Source of the DNA: Gemmatimonadota bacterium
GTDB taxonomy: Bacteria > Gemmatimonadota > Gemmatimonadetes > Palauibacterales > Palauibacteraceae
DNA length: 64,000 nucleotides
Reading direction: 5' to 3'
Assembly (NCBI GenBank): GCA_965116475.1
Contig: OZ220691.1
Location: 1,984,001-2,048,000 of the forward strand
Under the pieces are notes generated by a model. The model saw only the letters and a list, made by a program, of their open reading frames with translations, was not told the origin of the DNA and searched no databases. This document shows positions 29,782 to 58,877 of this stretch, piece by piece (the stretch's first letter is position 1; each line of letters starts with the position of its first letter). The position numbers and the translations under genes were made by a program.

Positions 29782-29913
29782 GGATCATCCAGGTCGGAGG
29801 GTCCGCGTTCGCATCGTGCCCGCGGGCGGAAGTCCGGGCAAGGAGGGCTTGCGAGCGAGCCCAGCCCGCCGATACTCAGACGGATCGTTCCACGGCCGCC
29901 AACTCCGGACCCG

Positions 29914-30201
29914 ATGACAGACGCCAACATCCAGATCACGGTTGAGGGAACCCCGAACCCGCACGCGGCGAAGTTCGTGCTGGACCGCGACATTCCCGGC
30001 GAGGGGAGCCGCAGCTATTTCGATCCCGAGTCCGCCGCCGGGGACCCGCTGGCGGCGCGCCTGTTCGAGGTGGATGGGGTCCGCGCCCTGCTCATCGTCG
30101 AGAACTTCATCACGGTGACGAAGACCGCCGCGCTCGGGTGGCCGGACCTGCTGGACGAGATCGAGGAAGCCATCCTGAACGCGCTCCCCGCGCTGCAGTA
30201 A
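29914..30201 (+). CDS. NifU N-terminal domain protein
   Basis: TPNPHAAKF...PLAARLF...NFITVTK...W. Confidence 0.88.
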   Translation: MTDANIQITVEGTPNPHAAKFVLDRDIPGEGSRSYFDPESAAGDPLAARLFEVDGVRALLIVENFITVTKTAALGWPDLLDEIEEAILNALPALQ

Positions 30202-30375
30202 TCGCCGTCCGACCCCCCTCATTTGGGGGAGGAACCGTGCCCGCCGCGAGCTTGCCGTCGTGCCCTCATATTGTTATGGCACAACGTGTTGATACCAGGT
30301 ACATACCTCCCCTTAGGATCGTTCTTGGGCGACGGAACCACCGGCGCCAGGTCCATCACCTCGGGAAGGAGGAAC

Positions 30376-33300
30376 ATGTTCACGCTGCGCTGCTTCGGCG
30401 AAGTCGTGGCCTCGGACGCACGCGGGACAAGGATCTCGCTGCGGTCACGGAAGCACACGGGTCTCCTGCTCTACCTCGTGGCGCACCCCGGCACGGTCCA
30501 CATGCGGGAGACGCTCGCCGATCTGCTCTGGGATAGTCGCGACAGGAAAGCGCGACACTCGCTCAGCCAGGCCCTCTACGACATCCGCTCATCCGTCGGT
30601 CCCGTCATCGCCGTGGACGCCAACACGGTCCGGCTCGTGCCGCAGCGGGTCACCTATGAACTCGATGCTTTCGAGCGAGCGTTCCGGGCCGGGGACCACG
30701 AGACGGTCATCGATCTGTACCGGGGAGACTTCGCCCCCGGCCTGCTCAACCTGGGAGCCGACGAGTTCGAGCGCTGGCTGGACGGCGAACGCGAGCGCTG
30801 CCGCGTTCTGGTCGCCATGGCACTCAAGAACGTGCAACAGGCGGCCGAGGAGAGAGGCGACTGGGACCAGACGTGCCTGGCGGCGCTCCGGCTCGTGAGG
30901 CAAAACGAGTTCGACGAACACGCCCACAGCACCCTCATGCGTGCGTTATGCATGAAGGGCGACTACGCCTCCGCCCTCGCCTACTACCGGGCACTGGAGA
31001 AGTGCGGCTGGGTCGCCAGCGCCGCGACGCTGACGGAAACGGCGGCGTGGGCCCGGAGCCAGCTTGACGGCGCACCGCCCGTGGTCCGCGAGCCCCACGA
31101 ACCGCAGTTGTCGAATCGAGGAGGAGAATTCCGCCAGCTGAGCCTCGCCCTCCGTTCGTCCCGCGCCTTGCCCGTACGGTTGGTCCTGGCCGGCGAGCGC
31201 GGCCTCGGGCGGGAAGACGTGGTACGGAGCTTCGCCAGGTCCGTTTACAGCGGTGGAGGGTTGGTGCAGTGGCTGCCGCCGGATCTTGCGGGGGCACGGG
31301 AGGACCTGGCCACGGAGTTGGACCGGTACCCCGGAAAGACCCGGCTCATCGTCATCAAGGCCGATGTGGGCGATTGGGCCGCCGTCGATGACGTCATGCG
31401 AACGGCGGACTTCTCGGGCGCCCTGGTCGTCGGCTTCTCGAACCCGGAGGCGGCTCGGCAGGCGGAAGCCGCGCATCTGGTCGACTTCGTGATCCCCTTC
31501 GATCCGCTCACCATCGACGCGTGCGCGGCGTCGCTTCGGCTCATCGAGAGGGACTGCAGTCGTCCGCAGGCGCTCGAGAGTGCGAGGCTCTCCGGAGGCA
31601 ATCCGGCCCTGGCCAGGGCCATCCTCGGGGCGTGGATGCGGCACGGCTTCAGCCCCGCCACCGCCGGCGACCGGGAATCGGGCGGTCGATTGGCCTATGA
31701 GCAGTCCGCTGAGGTCCGGTCGATCGTCGGCGATCAACTGGAGACCCTCTCCCTAGCGGAGGAACGCCTGGCGACGGCGCTGGTGCTGCTCACCCGTGCG
31801 GCGCGCGCGCACGCCGAGTCGGTCGTGGCCGGACACTCGAGTCGGAATGCCCTTGAAGGGCTCCGGGCCAAGGGCTGGCTGCACTCCGAGGCCGGCCAGT
31901 GGACGGTGAGCCGCCCTCTGGCCGGCGCAGTGCTCACATGGAATCTGCCGCCGGACGAGAAAACGAAGGTACATTTGGCAGCCGCTCAAACTCTCGAACA
32001 CGCGGGTCTCGGCGCGCGTGCGGCGGCCGCCTCGGAGTTCGCCGCGGCCGGGGAATCCTCTCGGGCTTTCGGCCTGGCCTGTGACGCGGCGAAGGGGGCT
32101 TTGCGGGAGGGCCGGTCGCCGGTGGCGGGTCAGGCGGCGGCGTTGGCGTTCGAGCATGCCACAGCCGGGACCGATCGCCTGCATTCCGGTCTTCTCCTCA
32201 CGGAGGCCGAGTTCCAGCGGGGACGGTTTCGGCGGGCCACGAGCGTGCTGCACCAGATTTCTGCCGTCGCGGACACAGGGAACGACCTGGGCCGCGTCCA
32301 ACTGGCCCTGGCGCGGGCGGCGGTGGCGGCGGGAGATCGACTCACGACGGGCCTGCACCGACAGAATCTGGCGGAAGCGAGCAGTCAGGCGACCGACCCG
32401 GCGCTCCTCCGCGCGCTGGCCGTGCAGACGGCCGTTCTCGATGCGACGGAACCTGCGTCGTCGCGCAGCGGGAGGCCCGGCTTTGAGAGGATCCGAACGC
32501 ATCTCCGCGGGGTCGTCCGCGAAGACGTCGACTACGCGGGCGTCTGGTGCGATGCATTCCGGCTCCTCTTCCATCGGGTTGGGGGTCGAAACGGTCTCGC
32601 GGAGGCTCGCCTGGTGCTCGAGACCTACCGTCACGGGCTCGGCCGGCTCGGCTACGAGGGTCTCAGGACCGCCACCGCCGCGGAGTTCTGGGTGGCCATG
32701 CGGGGGGCGCGTCTTCACGACGCCCTCCAGTTGCTGGAAGACACCTCCAGGACCCCCAGCCAGGACCGGCACGAGAACCGGCACGAGTCCGCGAACCTGA
32801 ACAACCGGGGCGCCGTCCTGCTCGAACTCGGCAACTTCGAGCAGGCGCTCGAGGAGCTGGGCCGCTGCCGCGAGATGGACGAGGCGCTCGAGAGTCCACC
32901 CCAGGCCCGGGCCTACGCCCTGATGAATCAGGCGCAGTGTTTCTTCTTCAAGGGGGAGTACGCCCGTTCCCGAGAGTACATGGAACAGTTACTCCGGCGT
33001 CCCGGGCACACGGGTCAACATCCGTTTGGGGCGCAAGCATGGGCACTCACCGGACTGCTGGCCATGACCGAGGACGATCAACGCGAAGTCGAGGCCTGCC
33101 TCGAGTTGCTGGGGGATGGCTCCGATGGTGTCGGAGAGAACGACCGCTACCTGGTAACCTGGTTTCGTGCCGCCGCGATGGGCACCCGCGATCGCCGGGA
33201 AACCGTCGCCAACCTCATCGAAGCTGCAGAGCATACCGCCGAAATCGACCGGCTGAGCGCCGAGAAGCTGAGAGTGCTGGCCGGCACCTATTCCCCACCC

Positions 33301-33396
33301 AACGGACCCGGCGACCAGCGCGAGGCGTGCGGCTTCCTGCGGTCGGCCGGCGCCTCCTGGTTCGTGCGCTTCGCACACAACTGGCAGCGCGCGTAG
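30376..33396 (+). CDS. SARP/BTAD transcriptional regulator with degenerate NTPase and TPR region
   Basis: AGGAGG RBS; LRCFG, LLLYL, RETLADLLW, SLSQAL, LYRGDF, FERWL; C-terminal NNRGAVLLELGNFEQA TPR. Confidence 0.85.
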   Translation: MFTLRCFGEVVASDARGTRISLRSRKHTGLLLYLVAHPGTVHMRETLADLLWDSRDRKARHSLSQALYDIRSSVGPVIAVDANTVRLVPQRVTYELDAFERAFRAGDHETVIDLYRGDFAPGLLNLGADEFERWLDGERERCRVLVAMALKNVQQAAEERGDWDQTCLAALRLVRQNEFDEHAHSTLMRALCMKGDYASALAYYRALEKCGWVASAATLTETAAWARSQLDGAPPVVREPHEPQLSNRGGEFRQLSLALRSSRALPVRLVLAGERGLGREDVVRSFARSVYSGGGLVQWLPPDLAGAREDLATELDRYPGKTRLIVIKADVGDWAAVDDVMRTADFSGALVVGFSNPEAARQAEAAHLVDFVIPFDPLTIDACAASLRLIERDCSRPQALESARLSGGNPALARAILGAWMRHGFSPATAGDRESGGRLAYEQSAEVRSIVGDQLETLSLAEERLATALVLLTRAARAHAESVVAGHSSRNALEGLRAKGWLHSEAGQWTVSRPLAGAVLTWNLPPDEKTKVHLAAAQTLEHAGLGARAAAASEFAAAGESSRAFGLACDAAKGALREGRSPVAGQAAALAFEHATAGTDRLHSGLLLTEAEFQRGRFRRATSVLHQISAVADTGNDLGRVQLALARAAVAAGDRLTTGLHRQNLAEASSQATDPALLRALAVQTAVLDATEPASSRSGRPGFERIRTHLRGVVREDVDYAGVWCDAFRLLFHRVGGRNGLAEARLVLETYRHGLGRLGYEGLRTATAAEFWVAMRGARLHDALQLLEDTSRTPSQDRHENRHESANLNNRGAVLLELGNFEQALEELGRCREMDEALESPPQARAYALMNQAQCFFFKGEYARSREYMEQLLRRPGHTGQHPFGAQAWALTGLLAMTEDDQREVEACLELLGDGSDGVGENDRYLVTWFRAAAMGTRDRRETVANLIEAAEHTAEIDRLSAEKLRVLAGTYSPPNGPGDQREACGFLRSAGASWFVRFAHNWQRA

Positions 33397-33467
33397 CCCG
33401 GGCTTCCCGCGCCGCGTGACCCGGACGTTCCCGCTGGTGTCCGAATCGGGGTTCTTCGAGCGTTGCT

Positions 33468-33510
33468 ACTACGTACCTAGTTGACAGCGGCGCCCGGTCG
33501 CGTTTACGCT
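33468..33510 (+). promoter_or_regulatory. Sigma70-type promoter with overlapping BlaI-like operator
   Basis: TTGACA (33481-86)-N18-TACGCT (33505-10); imperfect palindrome ACTACGTACCTAGT (33468-81). Confidence 0.6.
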
Positions 33511-33607
33511 GAATCGGGAACGACGCTCCGCCCGGCTCGCCAGCGTCTCGACGGCGGCCGGCCGGGGCAGGCGACGCTGATGGTTCGGGAGGGAAAGGAC
33601 CAGACTG

Positions 33608-33979
33608 GTGGAGATCAAGTTCACGACCCGGGAACTCGACCTCATGGCGGTGCTGTGGGAGAGAGGGGCCTCGACCGTCGCCGAGGTGCAGGAACGCCTC
33701 GGCGATGAACTGGCCTACACCACCGTGCTCACGATCCTCCGGACGCTGGAGGAGAAGGGGTACGTGGGCCACACCCAGGAGGGGAAAGCCTACCGCTACC
33801 ACACGCTCGTGGGGCGCGAATGCGCCGGCGCGAGCGCCGTGCGCCGGCTGGTTCAGAAGATGTTCCAGGGGTCGCCCGAACTGCTGCTCACGCACCTCGT
33901 CTCCGACCGGGCGCTCTCGAAGGAGGACCTCGAGAACCTGCGCGGCATGGTGGACGAACGCCTCAGCTCGAAGGAGTAG
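33608..33979 (+). CDS. BlaI/MecI/CopY family repressor
   Basis: RELDLMAVLW, LAYTTVLTILRTLEEKGYV, FQGS. Confidence 0.95.
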   Translation: MEIKFTTRELDLMAVLWERGASTVAEVQERLGDELAYTTVLTILRTLEEKGYVGHTQEGKAYRYHTLVGRECAGASAVRRLVQKMFQGSPELLLTHLVSDRALSKEDLENLRGMVDERLSSKE

Positions 33980-33983
33980 GGAC

Positions 33984-36026
33984 ATGGTCATCGCCTGGAT
34001 CGGATACTGCCTGTTGATTTCGGGACTCCTCGCCCTGGCGGCCTTCACCTCGGAGCGGGCGCTCGGCCACTTTCGGAAGCCCGTGCGCTGGGCGTGGTTC
34101 GGGGCGATCGCCGGATCCGTGACGGTGCCCGTGGTCGCCTTCTTCGCGCCCGGACTCCTGCCCGGTTTCGGGGTGTCGCCCGGCGCTTCGGCGGCCGGGC
34201 TGGGCGGTCTGCCGGTCGCAACCACGGCTGCGGAGCTGCCTGCAACGGCCGCGGCGGCCGGTGGAGGTTTCGATGCGGCGGCGGTCGGCACGGTGCTGGC
34301 GTGGGGCTGGTTGCTCCTGGCCATCGCCATGGTCGGCTATCTCGGGCGGATCTACGGCCGGCTGCGGTCGGAGATGCGGACGTGGCGGCCGGGCCGCATC
34401 GCGGGATCGCCGGTCATGATCTCCGACGAGCGGGGGCCCGCCGTCGTCGGGATCCGGCGCTCGGTTGTCGTGATGCCGAAGTGGATCCCCGAACTCGACG
34501 ACCGGCTGCTCCGCCTCGTCTTCCTCCACGAGCGGGAGCATCAGCGCGCCGGCGACCATCGGCTTTTCGCGGCCGCGGTCACCGCGCTCGTCCTGATGCC
34601 CTGGAACCCCGTCGTGTGGTGGCAGGTGTCCCGGCTGCGGCTCGCGATCGAGTTCGACTGCGACCGTCGCGTGCTCGGGCGGGGGGAATCGCGGCGCGAC
34701 TACGCGGACGCCCTCATCACGGTGGGCAGCCGCGTCTCCGGGTCGCTGCTCGCCGCGGCCGCCTTCGCCGAACGGAAGCCGGCCGTCGAACGGCGCCTGC
34801 GCCGCATGACCGAGCCGCCCGCCAACATGCGTCTGCTCCGAACGCTGGGCGCCTCGGGGCTGGCCATGGTCGCCGTCCTCTTCGCGCTGGGCTGCCCCGG
34901 GCCCGAGAGCGGCATGAACGCGCCGGAGCCGCCCGCCGCGACGGTGACGCCACCCTCCGAAGCCAGTGAATGGGTGCCCCCGCTGTTGCCAAGCGAGGAG
35001 GCCGTGGGGCGCGGCGACCGGCCGTCCTTCATCGCGTACGACAGGCCGCCGGTTCTTCAGAACGGCGGCGAAGTGGGAGACGCGCTGGTGCAGGCCTACC
35101 CGCAGGATCTCAAGGAATCGGGCATCGGCGGCCGAGTCGAAATCTGGCTGTACATCGACACCTCCGGCATGGTGCGGAACACGGAACTGAAGACGAGCAG
35201 CGGCAGCGACGCGCTGGACGCCGCCGCCGCCGACGTCGCCGGAGCGATGCGCTTCGAGCCCGCGATGAACCGCGACCAGCCGACCGACGTCTGGGTCTCC
35301 CAGTTCATCACCTTCCAGGTTGCTGGCGGCGCGGACGCACCCCCCGCCCGCCGGGTTTCCGTAGCCGATGAGGGCGCACCCCTCGTCATCGTCGACGGCG
35401 TGATTCAGTCCGAGGGCAGGAGCCTGGAGGACCTGCAGTCCCTCGATATCGACCATGTCGAGATCATCAAGGGACCGAAGGCCGTCGAGCTGTACGGCGA
35501 GCGGGCCGCGAACGGCGTGATCGAAATCACGACCAAGGACGGCGCCGCCGACAGCGATGCCTCGAGCGACGCCCCGGAGGACAAGGTCGACGAGGCCGCC
35601 GATCTCCTGCTCGGAGCCGCCCGCGCCATGGACACCGGGGGCACGGTCGAGGAGGGGCAAGCGTTTGCGGTGAGCGAGGTGACGCCTCGTCCCGCGAGCG
35701 AGCTCACGGCCGAACGAGGCCTCGAGATCGAAGACATCGTTCGCTTTGGAGTTCTCGACGACTCCGACCGGGATGGCCTGCCGGAGGTCCGGATCGTGCC
35801 CCGGCCGGAGAACATGCCCGATCCCCTGATCGTCATCGATGGGGTGATTTCCGACGCCGCGGGGCTATCGGAACTCGGCCGACTCGACATCGATCATGTC
35901 ACAATCGTGAAAGGTACGCGTGCCCGGCAGGCGTACGGAGAACGGGCCGGACACGGCGTGATCGAAATCACGACGAAAGCGGGCGCGCACGACAGCGGCT
36001 CGCAGGACAGCGGCTCGAAGGAGTAG
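33984..36026 (+). CDS. BlaR1-like M56 metallopeptidase fused to TonB C-terminal domain and two TonB-receptor plug modules
   Basis: HEREH, WNPVVW, EFDCD; YP...GIGGRV...SSG...LDAAA...FEPA; two PL(V/I)(I/V)(V/I)DGV...KG...YGERA..GVIEITTK repeats. Confidence 0.88.
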   Translation: MVIAWIGYCLLISGLLALAAFTSERALGHFRKPVRWAWFGAIAGSVTVPVVAFFAPGLLPGFGVSPGASAAGLGGLPVATTAAELPATAAAAGGGFDAAAVGTVLAWGWLLLAIAMVGYLGRIYGRLRSEMRTWRPGRIAGSPVMISDERGPAVVGIRRSVVVMPKWIPELDDRLLRLVFLHEREHQRAGDHRLFAAAVTALVLMPWNPVVWWQVSRLRLAIEFDCDRRVLGRGESRRDYADALITVGSRVSGSLLAAAAFAERKPAVERRLRRMTEPPANMRLLRTLGASGLAMVAVLFALGCPGPESGMNAPEPPAATVTPPSEASEWVPPLLPSEEAVGRGDRPSFIAYDRPPVLQNGGEVGDALVQAYPQDLKESGIGGRVEIWLYIDTSGMVRNTELKTSSGSDALDAAAADVAGAMRFEPAMNRDQPTDVWVSQFITFQVAGGADAPPARRVSVADEGAPLVIVDGVIQSEGRSLEDLQSLDIDHVEIIKGPKAVELYGERAANGVIEITTKDGAADSDASSDAPEDKVDEAADLLLGAARAMDTGGTVEEGQAFAVSEVTPRPASELTAERGLEIEDIVRFGVLDDSDRDGLPEVRIVPRPENMPDPLIVIDGVISDAAGLSELGRLDIDHVTIVKGTRARQAYGERAGHGVIEITTKAGAHDSGSQDSGSKE

Positions 36027-36030
36027 GGAC

Positions 36031-37362
36031 ATGGTCATCGTCTGGATCGGATACTGCCTGCTGATTTCGGGGCTCCTCGCCCTCGCCGCCTTCGCGAGCG
36101 AGCGGGCGCTGGGTCACTTCCGGAAGCCGGTGCGCTGGGGCTGGTTCGCGACCGTCGTCGGCTCCGTGACGCTCCCGTTCGCGGCCTTTCTCGCTCCCGG
36201 CCTCTTCCCGGGCTTCGGAGCGGCGCCGTGGGCCCCTCTCGTGAGGCTGAGTGAGGCCGTCGTCGTGAGCTCCGCTCCCGCCGCGCCCGAGGCGGCGGGA
36301 TCTGCGGCGTGGTTCGACGCCGGCGCGCTGGGCGTGCTCGCGGGTGGGGTCTGGATACTGCTCGTGGCGGGGATGCTCTTCCACCTCGGGCGGGCGTACC
36401 GGCGCCTGCGGTCGGAGATGCGGACGTGGACGCCGGGTCGGGTCCTCGGATCGCCGGTCATGATCGCGGACGACCGGGGCCCCGCCGTGGTCGGAATCCG
36501 GCGCCCCGTCGTCGTGATGCCGCGGTGGATTCCCGAACTCGAGGACAGGCTGCTGCGACTGGTCTTCCTGCACGAGCGCGAACACCAGCGCGCCGGCGAC
36601 CACCGCCTGTTCGCCGTCGCGGTCGCGGCTCTCGTGCTGATGCCGTGGAACCTCTTCCTGTGGTGGCAGGTTTCCCGGCTGCGCCTGGCGATCGAGTTCG
36701 ACTGCGACCGTCGCGTGCTGGAGCGGGGCGAGTCTCCGCGCGACTACGCGGATGCCCTCATCACGGTGGGCGGCCGTGTCTCCGCGCCCCTGCTGGCCGC
36801 GGCCGCCTTCGCCGAACGCAAGCCGGCCGTGGAGCAGCGGCTGCGCCGCATGACCGAACCGCTGGCCCGGCTCCGCATTCCGAGAACCCTGGGAGCATCG
36901 GGCGTGGCCGCGCTCGCCATCATCCTCGTCCTGGGCGTCCCGCAGCCCGAGGCGCCGATGGACGCGCCCGCGCCCGCGGCAGATGCTGTCCGGAGTCGCG
37001 ATATCGAGGAGAACCCGCTGGTCCGCCTTGCCGAGAGAGCCGCGCAGGCGGACCGGCCCACGTTCGTCGCGTACGACACGCCGCCGGTTCTTCAGAACGG
37101 AAGCGAGATCCAGCAGGTGCTCGAGCGGGCTTATCCGAGAGCCCTGAAGGAGGCGGGTATCGGCGGCCGGGTCGAAATGTGGCTGTACGTCGACCTGTCC
37201 GGCGCCGTGGCCAACCAGGAGATCAAGACGAGCAGCGACAACGACGCGCTGGACCGCGCCGCCATGGAAGTCGCCGCGCAGATGCGGTTCCGCCCCGCAA
37301 GGAACCAGGGTGAACCGACCGCCGTCTGGGTCTCCCAGTGGGTGACCTTCCAGGTGATCTAG
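36031..37362 (+). CDS. Second M56-TonB fusion (tandem paralog, no plug modules)
   Basis: HEREH, EFDCD, YPRALKEAGIGGRV...LDRAAME...FRPA. Confidence 0.88.
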   Translation: MVIVWIGYCLLISGLLALAAFASERALGHFRKPVRWGWFATVVGSVTLPFAAFLAPGLFPGFGAAPWAPLVRLSEAVVVSSAPAAPEAAGSAAWFDAGALGVLAGGVWILLVAGMLFHLGRAYRRLRSEMRTWTPGRVLGSPVMIADDRGPAVVGIRRPVVVMPRWIPELEDRLLRLVFLHEREHQRAGDHRLFAVAVAALVLMPWNLFLWWQVSRLRLAIEFDCDRRVLERGESPRDYADALITVGGRVSAPLLAAAAFAERKPAVEQRLRRMTEPLARLRIPRTLGASGVAALAIILVLGVPQPEAPMDAPAPAADAVRSRDIEENPLVRLAERAAQADRPTFVAYDTPPVLQNGSEIQQVLERAYPRALKEAGIGGRVEMWLYVDLSGAVANQEIKTSSDNDALDRAAMEVAAQMRFRPARNQGEPTAVWVSQWVTFQVI

Positions 37363-37401
37363 CTGTAGATCGCAAGGCCGTTGGTAACCCTCACGCCGCC
37401 A

Positions 37402-37506
37402 ACGGCCTGCTGTCACGGTGCCGTCCGGGCCGCGCTTCACCTCCACGGTTGCCGCGTCGCAGGCGAGACGCCGGGACGTTCCCGCGGGAACGTGTGAGCC
37501 CTCCTC
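37402..37506 (-). pseudogene. Fragment resembling a DUF222/HNH endonuclease gene
   Basis: Translation EEGSHVPAGTSRRLACDAATVEVKRGPDGTVTAGR recalls the RRLACDA motif of DUF222-HNH proteins; no start and no HNH domain follow. Confidence 0.55.
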
Positions 37507-37669
37507 CGTGGCCAGGATTTCGGGGCCGCCGGCCACGGTGTGGAGCGCCAGCGCCCGGTCGAATCCTCGAAAGTGACGCGAACGCGGGTTGCCCCGTCTA
37601 CTCACGGGCGGTGGCATGGTCTATTCTCCCGGTCCGGGTCCCGGACCATTCAACCTCGCGGACGTTCAC

Positions 37670-39076
37670 ATGACACAAACCCGTGCCTTCCTGTTCGCCG
37701 TCGCGCTGGCAGCGATCCCGGGCCTGAATCCCGCCGGCATGGCGGCTCAGGAGGCGGTGGAGGTCGCCGGGACCGTCGTTGACGACGGGACGGGCGAGCC
37801 GCTCGAGGGCGCGACCGTTCGGTTGGCCGACGCAGCGGGTTCGGCGCGCGAAACCATCACGGGGCCGGACGGCGCCTTCGCCTTCGCCCAGGTTGCGCCG
37901 GGCACCTACACCCTCGCCGTGCGGCGCTTCGGGTACGAACTGCTCAGTACGCCGCTGGAAATCGGCGCGCAGGCCCCCCCGCGGTTGGACGTACGCCTCA
38001 CCCCGCAGGCGATCCCGCTGGAGCCGCTGGAAGTCGGCGTCGAAGGCCGCCCGCCCGACCTCGTGGAGTCCGGCTTCTACGATCGAATGGAAGAAGGCTG
38101 GGGGACGTTCTTCGAGCCCGAATGGATCGAGGCCAGCAAGGTCGGCTTCGTACGACTGCGGGACTACCTGTGGGTCCTCCAGAACCGCGCGCCCCTGTCC
38201 CGGTGCGAGAAGGTCCCGGTTTATCTCGACCGGAGGCCGGTCGGCACGACCCCCGGATGGGGGACGGACGATTCGTATCCGGGAGGGATCTTCACTGTCG
38301 CGTTGGATCGTCTTCCCCCGCTGCTCGAAGAGATGTCGGTGTCCGATCTCGGCGCGGCCGAGGTCTACCAGCCGGGAACGAAGATTCCGATGTTCGCCTG
38401 GACCTTTACGACCGCGGTTTGCGGCGCGGTCATCCTGTGGTCCGACTGGACGGCGCGCCTGCCGGAGATCCCGAAGATCGAGGTGAAGTTGTGCGAGTCG
38501 CGTGGCCGCCCCGGCGAGGTCGCGCTCGATGGCTTCGTGGAGGACGAAGTGACCGAAGTCAGGTTGCCCGCCGCGCATGTGTCCGCGTCGCACGCTAATC
38601 CCGACGATCCCGGCGGCCTCGAGCGGGTGGAAACGGTCGTCCGCACGGACTCGCTCGGACGGTATCGCGTGTGCGACCTGCCGGAGGGCGCCGTCATCCA
38701 TCTGACTCCAGAGTACGGCCCGCACGCGGGCGGGCCGTTGGTTGCGCTTGCGGCGGCGGGCGGCGACGCGCTGAAGCTGACGGTGCCGGTAACGTCTCCG
38801 GCTACGATCACCGGCATGGTCCTCAACGAGGCGACCTCGGCGCTGATCGAGGGCGCGCGGATCGTGCTCGTCGATACGGACTTCCGTACGGTGACGAACG
38901 CCGCGGGACGATTCTCCCTCGAGGACCTTCCGCCGGGGTCCTACAGGGTACGGGCCGTGTGCGCCGGCTATACGGGCGCCCCGCAAGAGGTGGAACTGGC
39001 CGAGGGAGGGAATATCGCCGTGGTCATCCGCCTACGCGCGACGGATCTCGCGAGACGCGGAACATGCTCCATCTAA
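37670..39076 (+). CDS. Secreted protein with three carboxypeptidase-regulatory-like domains and a plug-like segment
   Basis: Signal peptide; GTVVDDGTGEPLEGATV; GFYDR; AEVYQ...CGAVILW; TDSLGRYRVC; TNAAGRF. Confidence 0.8.
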   Translation: MTQTRAFLFAVALAAIPGLNPAGMAAQEAVEVAGTVVDDGTGEPLEGATVRLADAAGSARETITGPDGAFAFAQVAPGTYTLAVRRFGYELLSTPLEIGAQAPPRLDVRLTPQAIPLEPLEVGVEGRPPDLVESGFYDRMEEGWGTFFEPEWIEASKVGFVRLRDYLWVLQNRAPLSRCEKVPVYLDRRPVGTTPGWGTDDSYPGGIFTVALDRLPPLLEEMSVSDLGAAEVYQPGTKIPMFAWTFTTAVCGAVILWSDWTARLPEIPKIEVKLCESRGRPGEVALDGFVEDEVTEVRLPAAHVSASHANPDDPGGLERVETVVRTDSLGRYRVCDLPEGAVIHLTPEYGPHAGGPLVALAAAGGDALKLTVPVTSPATITGMVLNEATSALIEGARIVLVDTDFRTVTNAAGRFSLEDLPPGSYRVRAVCAGYTGAPQEVELAEGGNIAVVIRLRATDLARRGTCSI

Positions 39077-39095
39077 TCCGAGGGAGCCGCCGCGG

Positions 39096-40511
39096 ATGAC
39101 GAACAGGGCGCCGGTGCTGGCTCTGGCCATCGTCCTTGCGGCGGGGAACGCGATCTCGTCCGATGCCGTGAGCGCCCAGGAGGCGGTCCGGATCCAGGGC
39201 ACCGTCGTTGACGACGGGACGGGCGAGCCGATCGATGGCGCGACGGTCCGGCTGGCCGACGCGTCCGGTTCCGCCCGCGAAACCATCACCGGACCGGATG
39301 GCACCTTCGCGTTCGCCGAAGTTGCGCCGGGCACCTACACGCTCGCCGTGCGGCGCTTCGGGTACGAACTGCTCAGCACGCCGCTCGAGATCGGCGCGCA
39401 GGCGCCCCCGCGACTGGACGTACGCCTGACCCCGCAGGCGATCCCGCTGGAGCCGCTGGAAGTTGGCGTGGAAGGCCGCCCACCCCGCCTCGTAGAGTCC
39501 GGCTTCTACGACCGAATGGAGGAAGGGTGGGGCGTATTCCTCGAGCCGCAGTGGATCGAAGCCAACACGCGAGGCTTCGTGCGTCTCGCCGACTTCATGT
39601 CCACACTCCAGCTGCGCGCCCCTCTACCGCGGTGCGACAGGATACCGGTGTACCTCGACCGGAGGCGGGTCGGACTGGCGGACGGCTCGGGAACGAGCCG
39701 GTCGTACTCGTTGAATCCGGCGGGGACTTTCCGTTCTCCGGTGGGACCGCCCCCGACGCTGCTGGAAGAACTCTCGGTCACCGATGTCGGCGCCGCGGAG
39801 GTGTATCAGCCTGGCTCAAAGGTTCCGTTCTTCGCCTGGGACGACCTCACCATGACCTGCGGCGCGATCATCCTGTGGTCCAACTGGACGGCGGATACGC
39901 CTGAGATACCGCGGATCGAGGTCGAGCTGTGCGAGCCGGCCGGCCGACCCGGCAACGTGGCGGTGAACGGCTTGGTGGAAGATGAAGTGACCCGGGTCCG
40001 GCTACCCGCCGCGCATGTGTTCGCGTCTTACGCAAATCCCGGGGATCCGACCGGCCTCGAACGCGTGGAAACGGTGGTCCGCACGGACTCGCTCGGACGG
40101 TACCGGCTGTGCGAAGTCCCGGCCGACGAGACCCTGGAATTGACGGCCGCCTACGGTCCTCACCGTGGGGAGCCCTCGACGGTCGTCGCCGAGGCGGGCG
40201 TCGAGGCAGGGCTCGCCGTGACCGTGACCTCGCCCGGGGCGATCACGGGCGTCGTGGTGAACGAGCGCACCGAACATCCGCTCGAGGCCGCCAGCGTGAC
40301 GGTGGCCGGCACGGATGTCCGCGCCACGACCGATCGAGCCGGCCGATTCTCGCTGGAGGGGTTGTCGCCCGGCACCTACAGGATCACCGCCCTCTGCGGG
40401 GGCTTCGACCTCAGAGTGCGAGAAGTGGAACTCGCCGAGGGGCAGCAGGCAAGCGTCGTGATCGGCCTCCGGTCGAAGGGAGCGGCAAGCCGGACGCGCT
40501 GCTCCGCCTGA
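39096..40511 (+). CDS. Tandem paralog of the 37670-39076 protein
   Basis: Same architecture; N-domain almost identical in protein sequence. Confidence 0.8.
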   Translation: MTNRAPVLALAIVLAAGNAISSDAVSAQEAVRIQGTVVDDGTGEPIDGATVRLADASGSARETITGPDGTFAFAEVAPGTYTLAVRRFGYELLSTPLEIGAQAPPRLDVRLTPQAIPLEPLEVGVEGRPPRLVESGFYDRMEEGWGVFLEPQWIEANTRGFVRLADFMSTLQLRAPLPRCDRIPVYLDRRRVGLADGSGTSRSYSLNPAGTFRSPVGPPPTLLEELSVTDVGAAEVYQPGSKVPFFAWDDLTMTCGAIILWSNWTADTPEIPRIEVELCEPAGRPGNVAVNGLVEDEVTRVRLPAAHVFASYANPGDPTGLERVETVVRTDSLGRYRLCEVPADETLELTAAYGPHRGEPSTVVAEAGVEAGLAVTVTSPGAITGVVVNERTEHPLEAASVTVAGTDVRATTDRAGRFSLEGLSPGTYRITALCGGFDLRVREVELAEGQQASVVIGLRSKGAASRTRCSA

Positions 40512-40530: not shown

Positions 40531-41958
40531 CTACACCACCTTCTGCTTCCAGTGGCCGCGGCGGAAGATCCAGAGGCCGACGACGGCCGACAGCGAGTAG
40601 GCGACCGCGAACGACCAGAACACGCCCGTCTCGCCCCACCCGACGCGGAACGCGAGCAGCGCCGCGACGGGAAGCTGGAAGAACCAGAACACCCAGATGT
40701 TGATCCAGGTCGGCGTCGCCGTGTCGCCCGCGCCGTTGAAGGCCTGCATCGTCACCATGCCCCAGGCATAGAAGATGTAGCCGTAGCTGATGATCCGGAG
40801 CGCGCGCACGCCCACGTCGAGCGTCTCCGGGTCCGGGGCGAACGGCGCCAGGATCGGCCCCGGGAACGCCACGAAGACCACCGTCACCACGGCCATGAAC
40901 AGCATGTTCCACAAGCCGGTGAGGTAGACGGCCCGCTCGGCGCGGTCGGGCCTCTCGGCACCGAGGTTCTGGCCCACGAGCGTGGCGGCGGCGTTCGCGA
41001 GGCCCCAGGCGGGGAGGATGATGAAGATGACCACGCGGATCGCCATGGTGTAGCCCGCGAGGGCGATCGTCCCGAACTCGGACAATATCCGGATCGAGGC
41101 GATGTAGCTGACCTGGGTCACGAGCATCTGTCCCACGCCGCCGACCGACACCTCCGCGAGCCGCTGGATCACGGGCCAGTGGACCCGGAGGTCGTCCCGC
41201 CGCACCCGGACGCGCTCGCCGCGCGACAGGTGCCACAACTGGTACAGGGCCCCGATCCCGCGCCCGGTCGTCGTGGCCACTGCGGCCCCCGGGAGTCCGA
41301 GTTCCGGGAAGATCCAGAGGCCGAACACGAGCACGGGATCGAGCACGATGTTGATCCCGTTGGCCAGCCACACGGAACGCATCGCCATCGACGGGTCGCC
41401 CGCCCCCCGGTAGATCGCGTTGTTCACGAAGAGAAGGATGATGACGACCATCCCGCCCAGCTGGATGCGGGCGTAGGTGGTGCCTTGGGCGACGACTTCG
41501 GGTGAGCCGCCCATGACCCGAAGCAGCCACGGGGCCAGAATCGCGCCTGCGAGTCCGAGGACCGCGGCGATGCCGACGCTCAGCACGATCGCCTGCACGG
41601 CGGCCGTCGCCGCCCCCCGCCCGTCCTTCTCGCCCGTCCGGCGCGCGACCATCGCCGTAGTGGACATCGCGAGTCCCATCGCGACCGAGTAGATGACCGC
41701 CAGCATCGCTTCGGTGAGCGCGATCGCGGCGAGCGCGTCGGCGCCGAGCCGGCTGACGACCGCCATGTCCACGAGGAAAAAGAGCGACTCCCCCGCCATC
41801 TCGAGCACCATGGGGATGGCGAGCAGGAGCACGCCGCGGTTCAGACTCCCCGATGTGAAGTCCTCCTGCGTGCCCCACAGCAGCGCCCGCGCCGTATCCC
41901 ACACTCGGGAGCGGCCGGGAGCCGCAGCTTCCCCTTCGGGCCGGCCGGTGTCGCTCAA
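40531..41958 (-). CDS. MATE family efflux transporter
   Basis: LAIPM, RGAGD, NIVLDP, GAAVAT, VGQNLGA. Confidence 0.93.
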   Translation of the reverse strand: MSDTGRPEGEAAAPGRSRVWDTARALLWGTQEDFTSGSLNRGVLLLAIPMVLEMAGESLFFLVDMAVVSRLGADALAAIALTEAMLAVIYSVAMGLAMSTTAMVARRTGEKDGRGAATAAVQAIVLSVGIAAVLGLAGAILAPWLLRVMGGSPEVVAQGTTYARIQLGGMVVIILLFVNNAIYRGAGDPSMAMRSVWLANGINIVLDPVLVFGLWIFPELGLPGAAVATTTGRGIGALYQLWHLSRGERVRVRRDDLRVHWPVIQRLAEVSVGGVGQMLVTQVSYIASIRILSEFGTIALAGYTMAIRVVIFIILPAWGLANAAATLVGQNLGAERPDRAERAVYLTGLWNMLFMAVVTVVFVAFPGPILAPFAPDPETLDVGVRALRIISYGYIFYAWGMVTMQAFNGAGDTATPTWINIWVFWFFQLPVAALLAFRVGWGETGVFWSFAVAYSLSAVVGLWIFRRGHWKQKVV

Positions 41959-41995: not shown

Positions 41996-43048
41996 TCAGT
42001 ACGTCCAGATCGCGACCAGGTTGCAGTCGGTGAGGAGCATGGTGTTCGGCACCTGGTTCATGATCTCCGGGGGCGCCTCGCTGCACCTGTACGCTTCGAT
42101 GCCCCGAACGGTGTCGAACTTCAGTTCGCCCAGGTTTCTCCGAGTGAATCCCAGGCGGCTGGCCGGCCGACCGTTGAGGAGGATGAGCTGGTTCCGGCGG
42201 TATCGGATGGAGAGTTCCCGCTTGAACTGGAACACCTGCCCCAGATGGATGAACTGGTCGATTTCCGGATGGGTCGCGAAGTAGCCTTCGTCGATGGACT
42301 GGCGGCGTTCGTAGAACCCGGACGTGAGCAGGAACGGGTCGCGGCCGGTCACCCTCACCTCGATCGGCGCGAGCGCGATCGCCTGCGTGTTGAGTTCGAC
42401 GCGGAATTCGGCGCGCTGGTCCGTGAGGATGTTGATCTCGGTCTCGAGGGGCGCGTAGCCGATATGCGCGACGCGCAGGCCGTAGGTGAGCGGCGGCATG
42501 GAGCGGAACGCCACGCGTCCGAGCGTATCCGTGACCCCGGAGACCGGTAGCGGGGAGAAGTCGATCCGCGCGCCGGCCACCGGTCGCCCGTCTGCGGCAT
42601 CCACCACGGAGAGGACAACGAACGCCGCGTCCCCCATGTCCACCTCGAGGTCGACGAACTGCGACCGGTCGAGGTCGACCTTGCGCTCCTTCCCGCGCCG
42701 GGACCGATAGTTCGGGCGCACCCGGATCTCCCGGAACGCTTCGAGGCCGCAGGCCTGGTATCGCCCTCGCTCGTCCGCTTCGACCCGCACGTCCTCCGGC
42801 GTCGGCAGCCCCCGTTCGGCCTCGTAGCGGATCAGGACCGTCGCCCCCGGCAGAGGGACCTGGCTCTCATCGTCCCGGATCGTGCCCTCGATGCCGACCT
42901 CGAGTTCCGCCTGCCCGAGTTGCCGGCAGATGCGGAGGACCCGTTCCTCTTCCTCCTCCTGCCCCGCGGCCGGGGAGGGCGCGAGCGCGACCGCCGCCAG
43001 CGCGAGGCGCGGCCCGGCACCACGGAGGAGTGGCCCGCTACGGTTCAT
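41996..43048 (-). CDS. Secreted carboxypeptidase-regulatory-like domain protein with plug-like C-terminus
   Basis: Signal peptide, GTIRD...LPGATV, TDTLGR, GFYERR, GIEAY...VAIWT. Confidence 0.75.
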   Translation of the reverse strand: MNRSGPLLRGAGPRLALAAVALAPSPAAGQEEEEERVLRICRQLGQAELEVGIEGTIRDDESQVPLPGATVLIRYEAERGLPTPEDVRVEADERGRYQACGLEAFREIRVRPNYRSRRGKERKVDLDRSQFVDLEVDMGDAAFVVLSVVDAADGRPVAGARIDFSPLPVSGVTDTLGRVAFRSMPPLTYGLRVAHIGYAPLETEINILTDQRAEFRVELNTQAIALAPIEVRVTGRDPFLLTSGFYERRQSIDEGYFATHPEIDQFIHLGQVFQFKRELSIRYRRNQLILLNGRPASRLGFTRRNLGELKFDTVRGIEAYRCSEAPPEIMNQVPNTMLLTDCNLVAIWTY

Positions 43049-44205
43049 CCGCCGGCCTCGAGCAGCGCCTTGAGGAGCCCGTTTCCGGCCTCGCCCAGGC
43101 TGGTGGCGCCGCTGTTGTAGTTGCGGCCGAGCGCCACGCCATAGCCGCTCTCGGGTTCGAACACGAGGTACATGTTGTACCCGGCCACGGAACCGCCGTG
43201 GCCGACGAACCGCACGGTGCCGCCGCCCTCGAGCGCGACCGGGCGGATCGAGAACCCGAGTCCGTACCCCGAGTCCGGATCCTCGGGCGTCTGGACCGCC
43301 ATGACCTCCCGCCGCGTCGCCGGCTCCAGGAGTTCGTGTTCGGTCATGCCCATGACCGCGGCCGCGAACGTTGCGAGATCCCCGACGGTCGCGTAGACGC
43401 CCCCGTTCGGCACCTTGTAGCCGCGCCCCTCGTGCTCGAGCGCGGGAAAGTCGGCGTTCACGGCGCCGTCGCCTCCGTTCGCGAAGCCCACCGCGACCCG
43501 CCGCCACAGCTCGGGGCCGACGATGAAGGTCGAGGAGCGCATCCCCAGCGGCTCGAACAGGCGGTCCTCGACCAAGTCCATGAAGGACGTCCCGGCGGCC
43601 CGCTGCAGGGCGTACCCGAGCACCCCGTACCCGATGTTGGAGTACTGGTACTGTGTGCCGGGCATCGTGTAGAACCGGGTGTGGGGGATCGAGGCGAGGA
43701 TCTTGTATCCCCAGTCCTCGATCGGCCCCGCCGCGGCGCCGAGGAGTTCGGGCTCCCGGATGAGGCCGGCGGTGTGGCTGGCCAGCTGCCGCAACGTGAT
43801 CGGCTCCATGCCGGTCGGCGGGTCCGCGAAGCCGGCGGCCTCGGGCAGGTGGTCCACGACGGCGTCATCGAGCCCGACCGTCGCCTCTTCTACCAGGTCG
43901 GCCATCAGGATCGCGGTGATCGACTTCGAGATCGATCCGGTCCGGTAGATCGTCCGCACCCCCGCGGGCACGCGGTTCGGCGGGTCGGCCCAGCCGAACC
44001 CCTGCGCCCACAGCACCTGGTCTCCCTTGAACACCGCCGCCGTGATCCCGCCGATGCCGTCCGCCTCGACGTCTGCCGCGATCTGCCGCGAGAACGCGTC
44101 GATGGCGTCCGCGTCCTGCCCCGCCGCGGCGGACGGAAGGACGAGGACCGTGACGAGGGCCGTGAGAAGGAAGACGGTCGTCGCGGAGTGAAGGCGTGGC
44201 GCCAT
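43045..44205 (-). CDS. Serine hydrolase, beta-lactamase class C-like family
   Basis: SISK, LASHTAG, YSN, HGG; signal peptide. Confidence 0.9.
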   Translation of the reverse strand: MAPRLHSATTVFLLTALVTVLVLPSAAAGQDADAIDAFSRQIAADVEADGIGGITAAVFKGDQVLWAQGFGWADPPNRVPAGVRTIYRTGSISKSITAILMADLVEEATVGLDDAVVDHLPEAAGFADPPTGMEPITLRQLASHTAGLIREPELLGAAAGPIEDWGYKILASIPHTRFYTMPGTQYQYSNIGYGVLGYALQRAAGTSFMDLVEDRLFEPLGMRSSTFIVGPELWRRVAVGFANGGDGAVNADFPALEHEGRGYKVPNGGVYATVGDLATFAAAVMGMTEHELLEPATRREVMAVQTPEDPDSGYGLGFSIRPVALEGGGTVRFVGHGGSVAGYNMYLVFEPESGYGVALGRNYNSGATSLGEAGNGLLKALLEAGG

Positions 44206-45373: not shown

Positions 45374-45516
45374 GACGAGACTCCGCGGCCGAAGAACCCT
45401 CGAAAGTGTGACAGCGTCCGGGAGTGTCCCGCAATAGCGTCGCGCGTCGTGTGTGCGATACGCGCTTGCGTTACCTTCCCCGCGTGGCCTGGCGACGTCG
45501 TGGCGGAGACCGCGGG

Positions 45517-46767
45517 ATGCGAACACATCGACGAACACATAGAGAGGATCGTTCGGAGGTGCCGGCTCGGAAAAGGACCGTTCACCGGGCCGCATCCTGT
45601 GCGCTGGCGGCGGCCGCCGCCCTGACGTCGGCCGGATCCGGCTCCCGCCTGGCCGCGCAGAGCCCGTCCCCCACGCCACCCCGGAACTTCGTGACGTGTC
45701 CGGCGGAGATGGATCGCGCCCTCACCGGTCTCGCCGGCATCGTCCGCGATACACTGCAGGGCATCCTCATCCCGGGGGCTACTGTCTCCGCGACCTGGAC
45801 CGAAGACGAGGGACAGGAGCACACCGTCTCGGTGGAGGCGGACAGCGAGGGGGTCTACGTCCTCTGCGGCCTTCCTCCCCGGGAAGATCTCACGGTGAGC
45901 GCAAGGTTCCCGTCCTTCCGCACGGAGCCGATGCGGGTGAGCATCGAACCGGGCCCCCCCGCCGGGTGGGACATCCTCGTGGGCGTGGAGGCGGGTGCGC
46001 TCGCCAGCCTGCTCACGGTGCCGGGCCGAATCCTGGGCCAGGTGCTCGACCGTAGTTCCGGCCGTCCGGTCGAAGCGGCGAACGTCATCCTCTCGGATAC
46101 GCTGCTGGCGGAGGACCGGCAGCGAATGACCGATGGCAGCGGCCGCTTCATGTTCACCGACCTCAGCCCGGGGATGTACCGCGTGACGGTGGACCACATC
46201 ACCTTCGATCCCCTCGACCAGTTGGTGGACCTCCCGAGCGACCGGACCGTGCAGGTGGATTTCGAACTCAGCGCGGACCCGATCGAACTCGCGCCGATCG
46301 TCGTCACCGCGGTGCGGGAGAAGCGGCTGGAGTTGCAGGGATTCTACGACCGGCGCGAACTGGGCGAGGCGATCGGCGCCGGCGTGTTCCTGACCCGGGA
46401 CGACATCGAGGACGCCGGCGCGATCCGGGTCACGCACTACCTGGGACGGATTCCGGGCGTGCGCACCGAGTGCACCGGAGGCGCGAACAACAACTGCACC
46501 ATCCGCATGACGCGGGGCGCGCCCAGCCTGAGCAGGCGCGCCGAGTACGGGTGCCGGAACGCGAACGTCTACCTGGACGGCGTGCGCGTGATCCGCGACG
46601 GCGGGGGCGGCGAATCGATCGACAACTTCGTCACGCCGGCCGAGATCGCCGGGATCGAGGTCTATCGGGGCGCGAGCGAGTTGCCGGCCGAGTTCGGCGG
46701 GGCCGTCGGGCGCTGCGGGGCCATCGTCATCTGGACGGGCCCGGGGATACGGCGGCGTTCGCGCTAG
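45517..46767 (+). CDS. Secreted carboxypeptidase-regulatory-like domain protein with TonB-receptor plug-like C-terminus and no barrel
   Basis: Two G.V.D...P..A.V domains, PIELAPIVVTA, GFYDRR, PGVR, YLDG, EIAGIEVYRG...CGAIVIWT. Confidence 0.8.
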   Translation: MRTHRRTHREDRSEVPARKRTVHRAASCALAAAAALTSAGSGSRLAAQSPSPTPPRNFVTCPAEMDRALTGLAGIVRDTLQGILIPGATVSATWTEDEGQEHTVSVEADSEGVYVLCGLPPREDLTVSARFPSFRTEPMRVSIEPGPPAGWDILVGVEAGALASLLTVPGRILGQVLDRSSGRPVEAANVILSDTLLAEDRQRMTDGSGRFMFTDLSPGMYRVTVDHITFDPLDQLVDLPSDRTVQVDFELSADPIELAPIVVTAVREKRLELQGFYDRRELGEAIGAGVFLTRDDIEDAGAIRVTHYLGRIPGVRTECTGGANNNCTIRMTRGAPSLSRRAEYGCRNANVYLDGVRVIRDGGGGESIDNFVTPAEIAGIEVYRGASELPAEFGGAVGRCGAIVIWTGPGIRRRSR

Positions 46768-58152: not shown

Positions 58153-58334
58153 GGCGCCGGGCGCCTGAACGGGAGCCTGAGCCGCTCCCGGAACCCCGCC
58201 TCCGGTCGACCGGCCGCGGCGCATCCCCGCCGCGGTCCGGTCGCCCCCGCGCAACCAATCCCCGGTTGCCTGTGTCACCGGTCCAGAAGCAGAAGAAGCG
58301 GAAGAACCGACGTGTACCCGGAGACCCCGGCACG

Positions 58335-58877
58335 GTGACGGAACCGCAACTTATTCAGCGACTCAGGGACGGAGACCAGGACGCGGCGCGCGCGTTGTAC
58401 GACGCGCACGTCGACCGGGTGTTCCGGATATGCTACCGCTTTGCGGGCGAGGACCACCTCGCCCAGGACTTCACGCAGGAGACGTTCGTGCGGGCGTTCA
58501 CGAAGATCGACACGTTTCGCGGCGAGGCCGCGTTCGGGACGTGGCTGGGATCGATCGCCACGACCGTGTCGCTGAACGGGCTCCGCAAGGTGAAGCGCTT
58601 TCGCAGCCGCGAGACCGCGCTGCACGAGGACCTCCGCGCTACCGGCGGCCTGAACCGCCTCGAGCCCGACGTCAAGGAGCGGCTGCACCGCGCGATCGAC
58701 GAGCTTCCCGCCGGTTATCGCACCGTCTTCCTGCTGCACGACCTCGAGGGCTACACGCACGAGGAGATCGGGACGATGCTCGGCATCAAGGCCGGGACGT
58801 CCAAGTCGCAGCTCTTCCGGGCGCGCAGCCGCCTGCGGGAGAAGCTCGCGGACTTCGCGGGAGAATGGGCATGCTGA
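58335..58877 (+). CDS. ECF RNA polymerase sigma factor
   Basis: AQDFTQETF, FGTWL, LPAGYRTVFLL, EEIG...GTSKSQLFRAR. Confidence 0.92.
   Translation: MTEPQLIQRLRDGDQDAARALYDAHVDRVFRICYRFAGEDHLAQDFTQETFVRAFTKIDTFRGEAAFGTWLGSIATTVSLNGLRKVKRFRSRETALHEDLRATGGLNRLEPDVKERLHRAIDELPAGYRTVFLLHDLEGYTHEEIGTMLGIKAGTSKSQLFRARSRLREKLADFAGEWAC

Follow-up and report, generated by a model that had tools for sequence, protein, structure and literature searches.

The closest described counterparts of the locus discussed here are the BlaI/BlaR1 and MecI/MecR1 systems of Staphylococcus and Bacillus, in which the gene of a winged-helix repressor lies beside that of a multi-pass M56 protease with an extracytoplasmic C-terminal sensor, the latter being a penicillin-binding domain, and in which a palindromic operator is placed over the repressor's own promoter. 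A comparable arrangement, with the operator predicted, was found in a 64-kb stretch of Palauibacter-like Gemmatimonadota DNA with a G+C content of ~70% (hereafter the window), where five + strand genes follow each other in the order blaI, M56-1, M56-2, P4 and P5, separated by 4, 4, 307 and 19 nucleotides (nt), and a MatE gene (40531-41958) runs convergent to the cluster. In contrast to BlaR1 and MecR1, the sensor here consists of a TonB C-terminal domain (TonB_C), with or without parts of SusC-type plugs, two sensor genes accompany one repressor gene, and neither a beta-lactamase nor a PBP2a gene is present. We consider it somewhat probable (about 55%) that this locus encodes an autoregulated BlaI/BlaR-like proteolytic switch, in which a sensor made of TonB_C and plug modules stands in place of the beta-lactam sensor.

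M56 sensors that lack a transpeptidase domain and do not serve beta-lactams are also found in non-canonical BlaIR systems, such as CenIR of C. difficile and BlaI/BlaR of mycobacteria. According to the accessible parts of the CenIR paper (bioRxiv 10.64898/2026.04.08.717257; J Bacteriol 2026, PMC13492132), ~15,000 M56 proteins fall into 254 architectures and ~96% of them are encoded five or fewer genes away from a BlaI homologue. The combination of M56 with TonB_C is given there, from InterPro, as the second commonest architecture, ahead of the true beta-lactam sensors (~6%), while M56 with Plug and M56 with CarbopepD_reg_2 are among the architectures with at least 100 entries; BlaR-like TonB_C proteins are thus reported to be more numerous in InterPro than true beta-lactam sensors. 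The sensor architecture described in an earlier sequence-only reading of the window is therefore a known one. The tail of CenR is largely disordered, in contrast to the folded TonB_C and plug modules found here in a diderm host. In another phylum, TonB1 and TonB10 of B. thetaiotaomicron have M56 domains and present the same fusion to TonB_C, doubled in TonB10, with a domain structure that varies among species; the available portion of the TonB preprint gives no functional data for them, and describes neither half-plugs nor adjoining barrel-less plug proteins. In regard to these systems, the present locus offers a compact and conserved example with a clear, although putative, operator, two differing sensor strings and nearby proteins with a peptide of the type to which TonB_C domains are known to bind. 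Pairs that can be tested could thereby take the place of the loose label "TonB family protein / M56 metallopeptidase".

The repressor is the most clearly assigned component. The blaI gene (33608-33979) starts with GTG after a conserved GAAAGG, its start codon is kept across the related loci in the alignment of upstream sequences, and its product of 123 amino acids (aa) matches Pfam Penicillinase_R (PF03965) at E 1.2e-30 over residues 6-116. It also aligns over the full length with the structures of MecI, BlaI and Rv1846c (MecI 1sd6, residues 6-117, 2.4e-08; Rv1846c 2g9w, 1.2e-07), so the presence of a blaI gene, as first read from the sequence, is confirmed. Upstream of it, the putative operator CTACTACGTACCTAGTTG (33466-33483) forms an inverted repeat, CTACTA-N6-TAGTTG, with five of the six half-site positions complementary. 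It overlaps the TTGACA (33481-33486) of a promoter-like region (33481-33510), in which an 18-nt spacer leads to TACGCT (33505-33510). Since the sigma-70 consensus scan of the region called no promoters, the -10 element of the blaI promoter being too weak for it, this promoter is a putative one; the TTGACA and a GTTTA(C/G)GCT block are nevertheless both kept in the upstream alignment.

The palindrome that the sequence-only reading had taken for BlaI-like is unique within the window at up to two mismatches, where 0.09 occurrences would be expected by chance. A scan of the species-representative genomes for the P4 family gave 41 loci, and 18 of these (L001-L015, L020, L022 and L026) are orthologous to the locus in the window. 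Of the 41 loci, 16 contain a single exact CTACTA-N6-TAGTTG each, always ~95-145 nt 5' of blaI. Since blaI is present in 17 related loci, all of these but one keep the site; the sequence of the exception, L010, stops short of the DNA upstream of its first blaI. Between species, the half-sites are constant and the central six nucleotides vary, and a second BlaI box was found neither in the window nor in the 41 related loci. Constant half-sites with a variable centre, placed over the gene's own promoter, have the look of the operator of a dimeric repressor, and by this pattern the palindrome is a putative BlaI operator. Its sequence, on the other hand, is not the canonical one, as discussed below.

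Both M56 genes follow blaI closely. The 4-nt gap between blaI and M56 is present in the window and in 17 loci, the 4-nt gap between two M56 genes also recurs, and L010 (3-5464) holds two tandem blaI-M56 pairs. Given such gaps, we propose that blaI, M56-1 and M56-2 form one transcript. M56-1 (33984-36026) starts at the ATG at 33984 and not at that of the longest open reading frame, and encodes 680 aa with an M56 core at residues 1-329, followed by TonB_C (365-447), a first half-plug (456-525), a linker and a second half-plug (608-672). M56-2 (36031-37362; 443 aa) carries HEREH at residues 181-185 and a single C-terminal TonB_C (361-443). Peptidase_M56 (PF05569) and TonB_C (PF03544) were matched in both, with E values of 1.4e-19 and 8.7e-14 in M56-1 and of 5.4e-18 and 3.6e-14 in M56-2. 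The HExxH motif is intact in both proteases, and H181, E182 and H185 of M56-2 are invariant among 24 homologues. No transpeptidase or penicillin-binding domain was found in either protein by Pfam and NCBIfam, TonB_C being located at that place, and the NCBIfam model blaR1_generic scored 41.5 against a cut-off of 400. Two intact proteases, with TonB_C instead of the penicillin-binding domain, had been proposed from the sequence, and both points stand.

The TonB_C of M56-1 (35076-35324) is supported by Pfam, a local domain search, AlphaFold2 (AF2) and Foldseek. In the AF2 model of residues 340-680, with a mean predicted local distance difference test score (pLDDT) of 72.8, TonB_C reaches 92-98, while the half-plugs form small alpha/beta units at 70-90 and are separated by low-confidence linkers. 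The Foldseek matches of this TonB_C are TonB domains in complex with receptors (6i97_D, template modelling (TM) score 0.78; 2grx_C, 0.77; 2gsk_B, 0.73), and include those solved on FoxA, FhuA and BtuB (0.73-0.78). A search of PDB with M56-2 by phmmer gave no match; the profile of its homologues aligns with structures of TonB C-terminal domains, 9ddz, 6fip and 6i97, at E 0.005-0.009, through the last strand. As for the plug modules, the SusC/RagA signature TIGR04057 (NCBIfam) matches M56-1 in two stretches. The first module (35349-35558) is recognised by this signature, by the Pfam Plug model (1.7e-09), by the local domain search and by AF2, and the second (35805-35999) by the signature, the local domain search and AF2. 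The two SusC-type modules of the sequence-only reading are therefore present, but as half-plugs of ~65-70 aa and not as whole plugs, the Plug match being limited to the second half of the model, positions 55-107. With Foldseek they gave local matches to SusC plugs, the match to 8aa0_A having 46% identity over 56 columns.

The string of domains behind the protease varies considerably between species. In a survey of 30 M56 proteins from the window and the related loci, TonB_C was present in 29 and doubled in eight, and half-plugs, from zero to two per protein, were found in 17. In the only M56 protein of L012 (4906-7170), two half-plugs are flanked by a TonB_C on either side, as if both sensors had been fused into one. 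Such shuffling of the string fits interaction modules better than an enzyme.

Alternatively, the M56-TonB_C proteins could be TonB paralogues that energise transport, with the M56 part as a membrane anchor. Many of them are named "TonB family protein" in databases, and the B. thetaiotaomicron proteins are counted among the TonB homologues of that species in the preprint mentioned above. We regard this explanation as very improbable, given that the HExxH motif is invariant, that blaI is close-coupled for translation upstream in every locus, as M56 genes generally adjoin BlaI homologues, that the single N-terminal anchor of TonB is lacking, and that no ExbB or ExbD was found among the window proteins scanned. 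TonB energy transducers likewise have a C-terminal TonB_C with its pairing strand; instead of their single anchor with a long Pro-rich spacer, there is here a probably multi-pass M56 N-terminus followed by a linker of ~55 residues, which in M56-2 is Pro/Ala-rich and runs from the last hydrophobic segment to TonB_C.

According to the model of a proteolytic switch, BlaI dimers would bind the inverted repeat over the -35 element and repress blaI, M56-1 and M56-2 as one transcript. Hydropathy places hydrophobic segments of M56-2 at residues 1-19, 41-59, 99-117 and 286-304, plus the internal ones at 193-211 and 242-260, an arrangement that would resemble BlaR1 with the protease region in between. 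In each M56 protein, the HExxH zinc site would lie between the third and the last of the BlaR1-like segments, and the linker past the last one would place TonB_C in the periplasm, where M56-1 adds its two half-plugs. There, TonB_C would bind a partner by addition of a beta-strand from a TonB-box-like peptide, and occupancy of the string of TonB_C and plug modules by the partner would activate the protease, leading to the cutting of BlaI and derepression of the operon. Topology, DNA binding, cleavage of BlaI and the direction of signalling are all modelled here on BlaR1/BlaI.

Several observations weigh against this model. The operator differs from the canonical BlaI/MecI core, TACANNTGTA (PMC1935004, as far as accessible). 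The scissile pair of S. aureus BlaI, N101-F102 in the same source, aligns to H96-L97 here, and cleavage of BlaI at that site is therefore not implied. The 24-sequence M56 profile had no BlaR1 match in PDB at E<=0.1, its TonB_C part alone being matched. The predicted TM score (pTM) of the periplasmic string of M56-1 is 0.40, so that neither a fixed packing nor an intramolecular docking of TonB_C on the half-plugs is indicated. The comparative data, including all 18 linked loci, come from one Palauibacter-like clade. Finally, the literature searched, which was in part accessible as excerpts, brought up no experiments on M56+TonB_C proteins or on plug proteins that lack a barrel, and the ecogenomics paper on the order contains none of the terms looked for. 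The host lineage is known from metagenome-assembled genomes only, and tests would need heterologous systems.

In regard to the partner, P4 and P5 are candidates because of their conserved TonB-box-like linker and their position downstream of the sensors, rather than established components of the switch. P4 (37670-39076) has a signal peptide, a CarboxypepD_reg domain at residues 30-110, a linker (117-127), a diverged Plug at ~128-262 as we interpret it, and two CarboxypepD_reg-like beta-sandwiches (283-372 and 378-457). P5 (39096-40511) begins 19 nt past the P4 stop and is a paralogue of P4 with 66% identity and the same architecture. Both have N-terminal hydrophobic, signal-like segments, ending in A-A-Q and S-A-Q, and Pfam CarboxypepD_reg domains at both ends; at E<=0.01, Pfam gave no barrel or Plug match in either, and no barrel family, TonB_dep_Rec included, was matched in M56-1, P4 or P5. 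The earlier description of two secreted, same-strand CarboxypepD_reg/plug-like proteins without a barrel is in line with Pfam, with the homologues and with ESM-Atlas. A split receptor with its barrel encoded by a separate gene nearby was also considered and rejected, as the Pfam scan, which covered 41 proteins of the window, matched no barrel family in them.

The AF2 model of P4 (mean pLDDT 74.3, pTM 0.43) contains three beta-sandwiches, at 30-110, 283-372 and 378-457, and a mixed domain at ~135-262 with pLDDT 50-83. The identity of this middle domain was approached by several searches. An exhaustive search with P4 residues 115-380 gave 101 cluster representatives. Among 32 of these distant homologues scanned with Pfam, Plug was matched in 14, in seven of them within the stretch that matches P4 (e.g. 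P0177, 6.6e-10), and M56, TonB_C or a barrel in none. The ESM-Atlas clusters nearest to P4 112-265 are Gemmatimonadota Plug clusters, with a score of 0.96. A profile of 21 proteins with signal peptide, CarboxypepD_reg and plug-like architecture matches the receptor 9gbc_A in PDB at 7.8e-18 via the N-terminal extension (NTE), and continues collinear but weak into the plug; weak contacts were also seen with the plugs of two more receptors, Cir (0.13) and BtuB (0.44). When compared by hhalign with the half-plugs of the M56 proteins, a broader plug alignment gave E 4e-4 over 51 columns, while the P4-family plug by itself gave nothing (E 0.098, nine columns). Foldseek with the P4 model was dominated by immunoglobulin-like pilin and adhesin domains and gave no information on the middle domain, and the search with the CarboxypepD_reg-plug alignment was swamped by CarboxypepD_reg repeats, M56 appearing in two of the 120 matches listed, both via the beta-sandwich only, and thus gave no evidence for a fusion between M56 and plugs of the P4 type. 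Taken from these alignments, the middle domain of P4 and P5 is most probably a diverged Plug.

Between the first beta-sandwich and this domain lies the TonB-box-like segment of P4, IPLEPLEVGVEGR (38018-38050), with the near-invariant motif PL-x-V-x-VEGR. In an alignment of 36 sequences, P119, L120, V122, V124, E125, G126 and R127 are invariant or conserved to at least 90%, and AF2 predicts the linker to be disordered, in a stretch with pLDDT below 50. In the profile alignment, with its weak plug part, the linker aligns to PQVTELNEVVVSTS of the receptor 9gbc_A, at the position of the TonB box ELNEVVV. It likewise corresponds in position to the experimentally required TonB box of Bt1763 (VDEVVV), which follows directly after the NTE according to the accessible part of PMC7782687. 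The linker is accordingly described here as TonB-box-like, with binding to TonB_C putative. P4 and P5 thus share with the N-terminus of SusC/Oar-type receptors the order of CarboxypepD_reg NTE, short conserved strand-like linker and plug, and appear to be the front end of such a receptor, with NTE, TonB box and plug, devoid of the barrel. They differ from these receptors in the missing 22-strand barrel, in the two additional beta-sandwiches after the plug, and in a plug too diverged for Pfam. Six cysteines of P4 (C179, C251, C275, C335, C431 and C466), one of them three residues from the C-terminus, are invariant in the 36 family members, which suggests three disulfides and an extracytoplasmic location. 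A word-indexed search found 155 relatives, the named ones all from Gemmatimonadota or Candidatus Palauibacter. Barrel-less proteins with CarboxypepD_reg and plug constitute a sizeable Gemmatimonadota family.

It is possible, but in our view unlikely, that the switch has soluble P4 and P5, or else the half-plugs fused to its own sensors, as ligands, with the TonB_C of the M56 proteins reading the exposure of the TonB-box-like strand and relaying it to BlaI. Such a role would be consistent with the receptor-like order of NTE, conserved disordered linker and plug, and with the combination of TonB_C and plug modules in single M56 proteins. Furthermore, a linker of ~55 residues would probably be short for reaching the outer membrane, so that contact with a partner in the periplasm would be less difficult. 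A genomic argument comes from the 18 orthologous loci, which share a gene order that begins with a 1050-aa protein and a BTAD/TPR regulator, continues with blaI and its M56 genes (one or two), and closes with the P-like genes (genes similar to P4 and P5, again one or two) and MatE. At least one P-like gene lies downstream of the switch on the same strand in 18 of 18, despite the varying number of M56 genes and the intervening genes. In L014 (4041-6605), for example, the edge of the sequence holds the end of the M56 gene only, and a DDE transposase gene and a helix-turn-helix gene lie between the M56 and P-like genes.

The co-occurrence across Gemmatimonadota expected by the sequence-only reading is therefore found in all orthologous loci, but these represent a single clade with a possibly inherited gene order, and in the remaining 23 of the 41 loci, which hold distant relatives as well as paralogues with 42-59% identity, tblastn showed neither BlaI nor M56. 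The negative result is weaker for some of these unlinked loci, whose sequence is short or ends close to the match. Among the 48 Pfam-scanned genes, out of 137 called neighbour genes (13 of the 23 unlinked loci), there was no match to Penicillinase_R, Peptidase_M56 or TonB_C; what lies there are housekeeping genes, more CarboxypepD_reg proteins and one extracytoplasmic function (ECF) sigma factor. The TonB-box-like linker is, moreover, equally conserved in the aligned paralogues that have no linkage to BlaI and M56. As a side observation, an ECF sigma gene in L027 (13678-15514) adjoins a CarboxypepD_reg/plug-like protein.

A further argument against P4 and P5 as ligands comes from the DNA upstream of P4, where the pattern search found no BlaI box, either in the window or in the related loci. 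Instead, a 126-nt block (37544-37669) directly 5' of P4 is 84-98% identical in L022, L008, L009, L005, L004 and L001, about as conserved as coding sequence. It contains the invariant motifs GTGA...TGC...GTCT.C and TATTCTC and a small GGTCC/GGRCC hairpin. As a structured RNA it has no Rfam match, and a covariation term of 0.02 gives no support for a fold. The block always lies directly 5' of a P-like gene, whether M56-2 or a propeller gene precedes it, and its persistence irrespective of the preceding gene suggests a promoter or leader of P4's own; the block is thus probably the promoter and 5' leader of P4, devoid of a BlaI box, and P4 and P5 appear to be under their own promoter. The gene in question, encoding a six-bladed beta-propeller (DUF5128/NHL, ~440-480 aa), intervenes between the M56 and P-like genes in 14 of the 18 loci (e.g. 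L002:8491-9816, L007:8428-9864, L008:8554-9876 and L009:8554-9876). Fragments of it are present in L001 and L004 and none in the window at 37363-37543, and the window has lost this gene. The claim of the propeller to membership of the unit may be as good as that of P4 and P5. With no BlaI box, a conserved block of its own and the propeller gene in between, the tie of P4 and P5 to BlaI regulation, which the sequence-only reading had drawn, is not supported, and their case as ligands, for which their place beside the switch in a single clade and the conserved linker at a fitting position speak, is weak.

Alternatively, P4 and P5, together with the propeller of other species, could be outputs of the switch or mere neighbours. 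The sensors would then dock on the TonB boxes of ordinary outer-membrane TonB-dependent receptors, or on some other component of the envelope, and would signal receptor occupancy or the state of the envelope. We hold this as a tentative alternative, with the odds still against it. The closest structures of the sensor domain are TonB_C domains in complex with receptors, the combination of M56 with TonB_C occurs widely, Bacteroides being one example, and the DNA upstream of P4 contains a separate conserved element but lacks an operator. The region scan gave a single terminator-like site, on the minus strand, and none on the + strand from M56-2 to P4, so that read-through into P4 and P5 is possible. 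On the other hand, the short linker would make the outer membrane harder to reach, the 41 window proteins scanned with Pfam include neither the barrel of a TonB-dependent receptor nor ExbB or ExbD, and docking on ordinary receptors leaves the fused half-plugs without a reason.

Returning to the proteolytic switch, a wider reading of it would be that M56-TonB_C proteases are a signalling class which reads TonB-box exposure on soluble barrel-less plug proteins, that is, on periplasmic receptors derived from the front end of a transporter, and relays it to BlaI by proteolysis. As a general statement this is more doubtful still than the role of P4 and P5 as ligands in this locus. If true, cell-surface signalling would have a counterpart in the periplasm that acts on a repressor and not on a sigma factor. 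The FecA/FecR/FecI system shares with it the idea that the state of a receptor N-terminus is relayed across the periplasm and that transcription is controlled via proteolysis, a likeness that is conceptual only. In contrast to FecA/FecR/FecI, the proteins of the locus include no STN domain, no FecR-type anti-sigma factor and no adjacent ECF sigma factor, and a repressor serves as output; within the window, a single gene of the sigma-70 type was seen, at 58095-58877.

The surroundings of the cluster were also found to be conserved. On the 5' side, a 1057-aa Trans_reg_C/BTAD/TPR regulator (30223-33396, + strand) ends 70 nt upstream of the BlaI operator. It keeps its place in the related loci and is preceded by a 1050-aa protein (27049-30201, + strand) whose sole recognisable part is a C-terminal Nfu_N (963-1045), with 52-90% identity in the related loci. 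On the far side of MatE, a 503-aa CarboxypepD_reg protein (41996-43507, minus strand) is followed by a third barrel-less protein (45424-46767, + strand), in which Pfam clearly matches Plug (1.1e-11) besides CarboxypepD_reg twice; both proteins are kept in the related loci. This genome encodes numerous proteins of such kinds. CarboxypepD_reg also occurs in other domain contexts. A protein encoded at 52753-54714 (minus strand) combines it with vWF_A/VWA and YfbK_C domains, and P0357, P0361, P0382 and P0457 are among the long proteins that join sigma-70 regions 2 and 4 with CarboxypepD_reg repeats. CarboxypepD_reg beta-sandwiches may thus be common periplasmic parts of signalling proteins.

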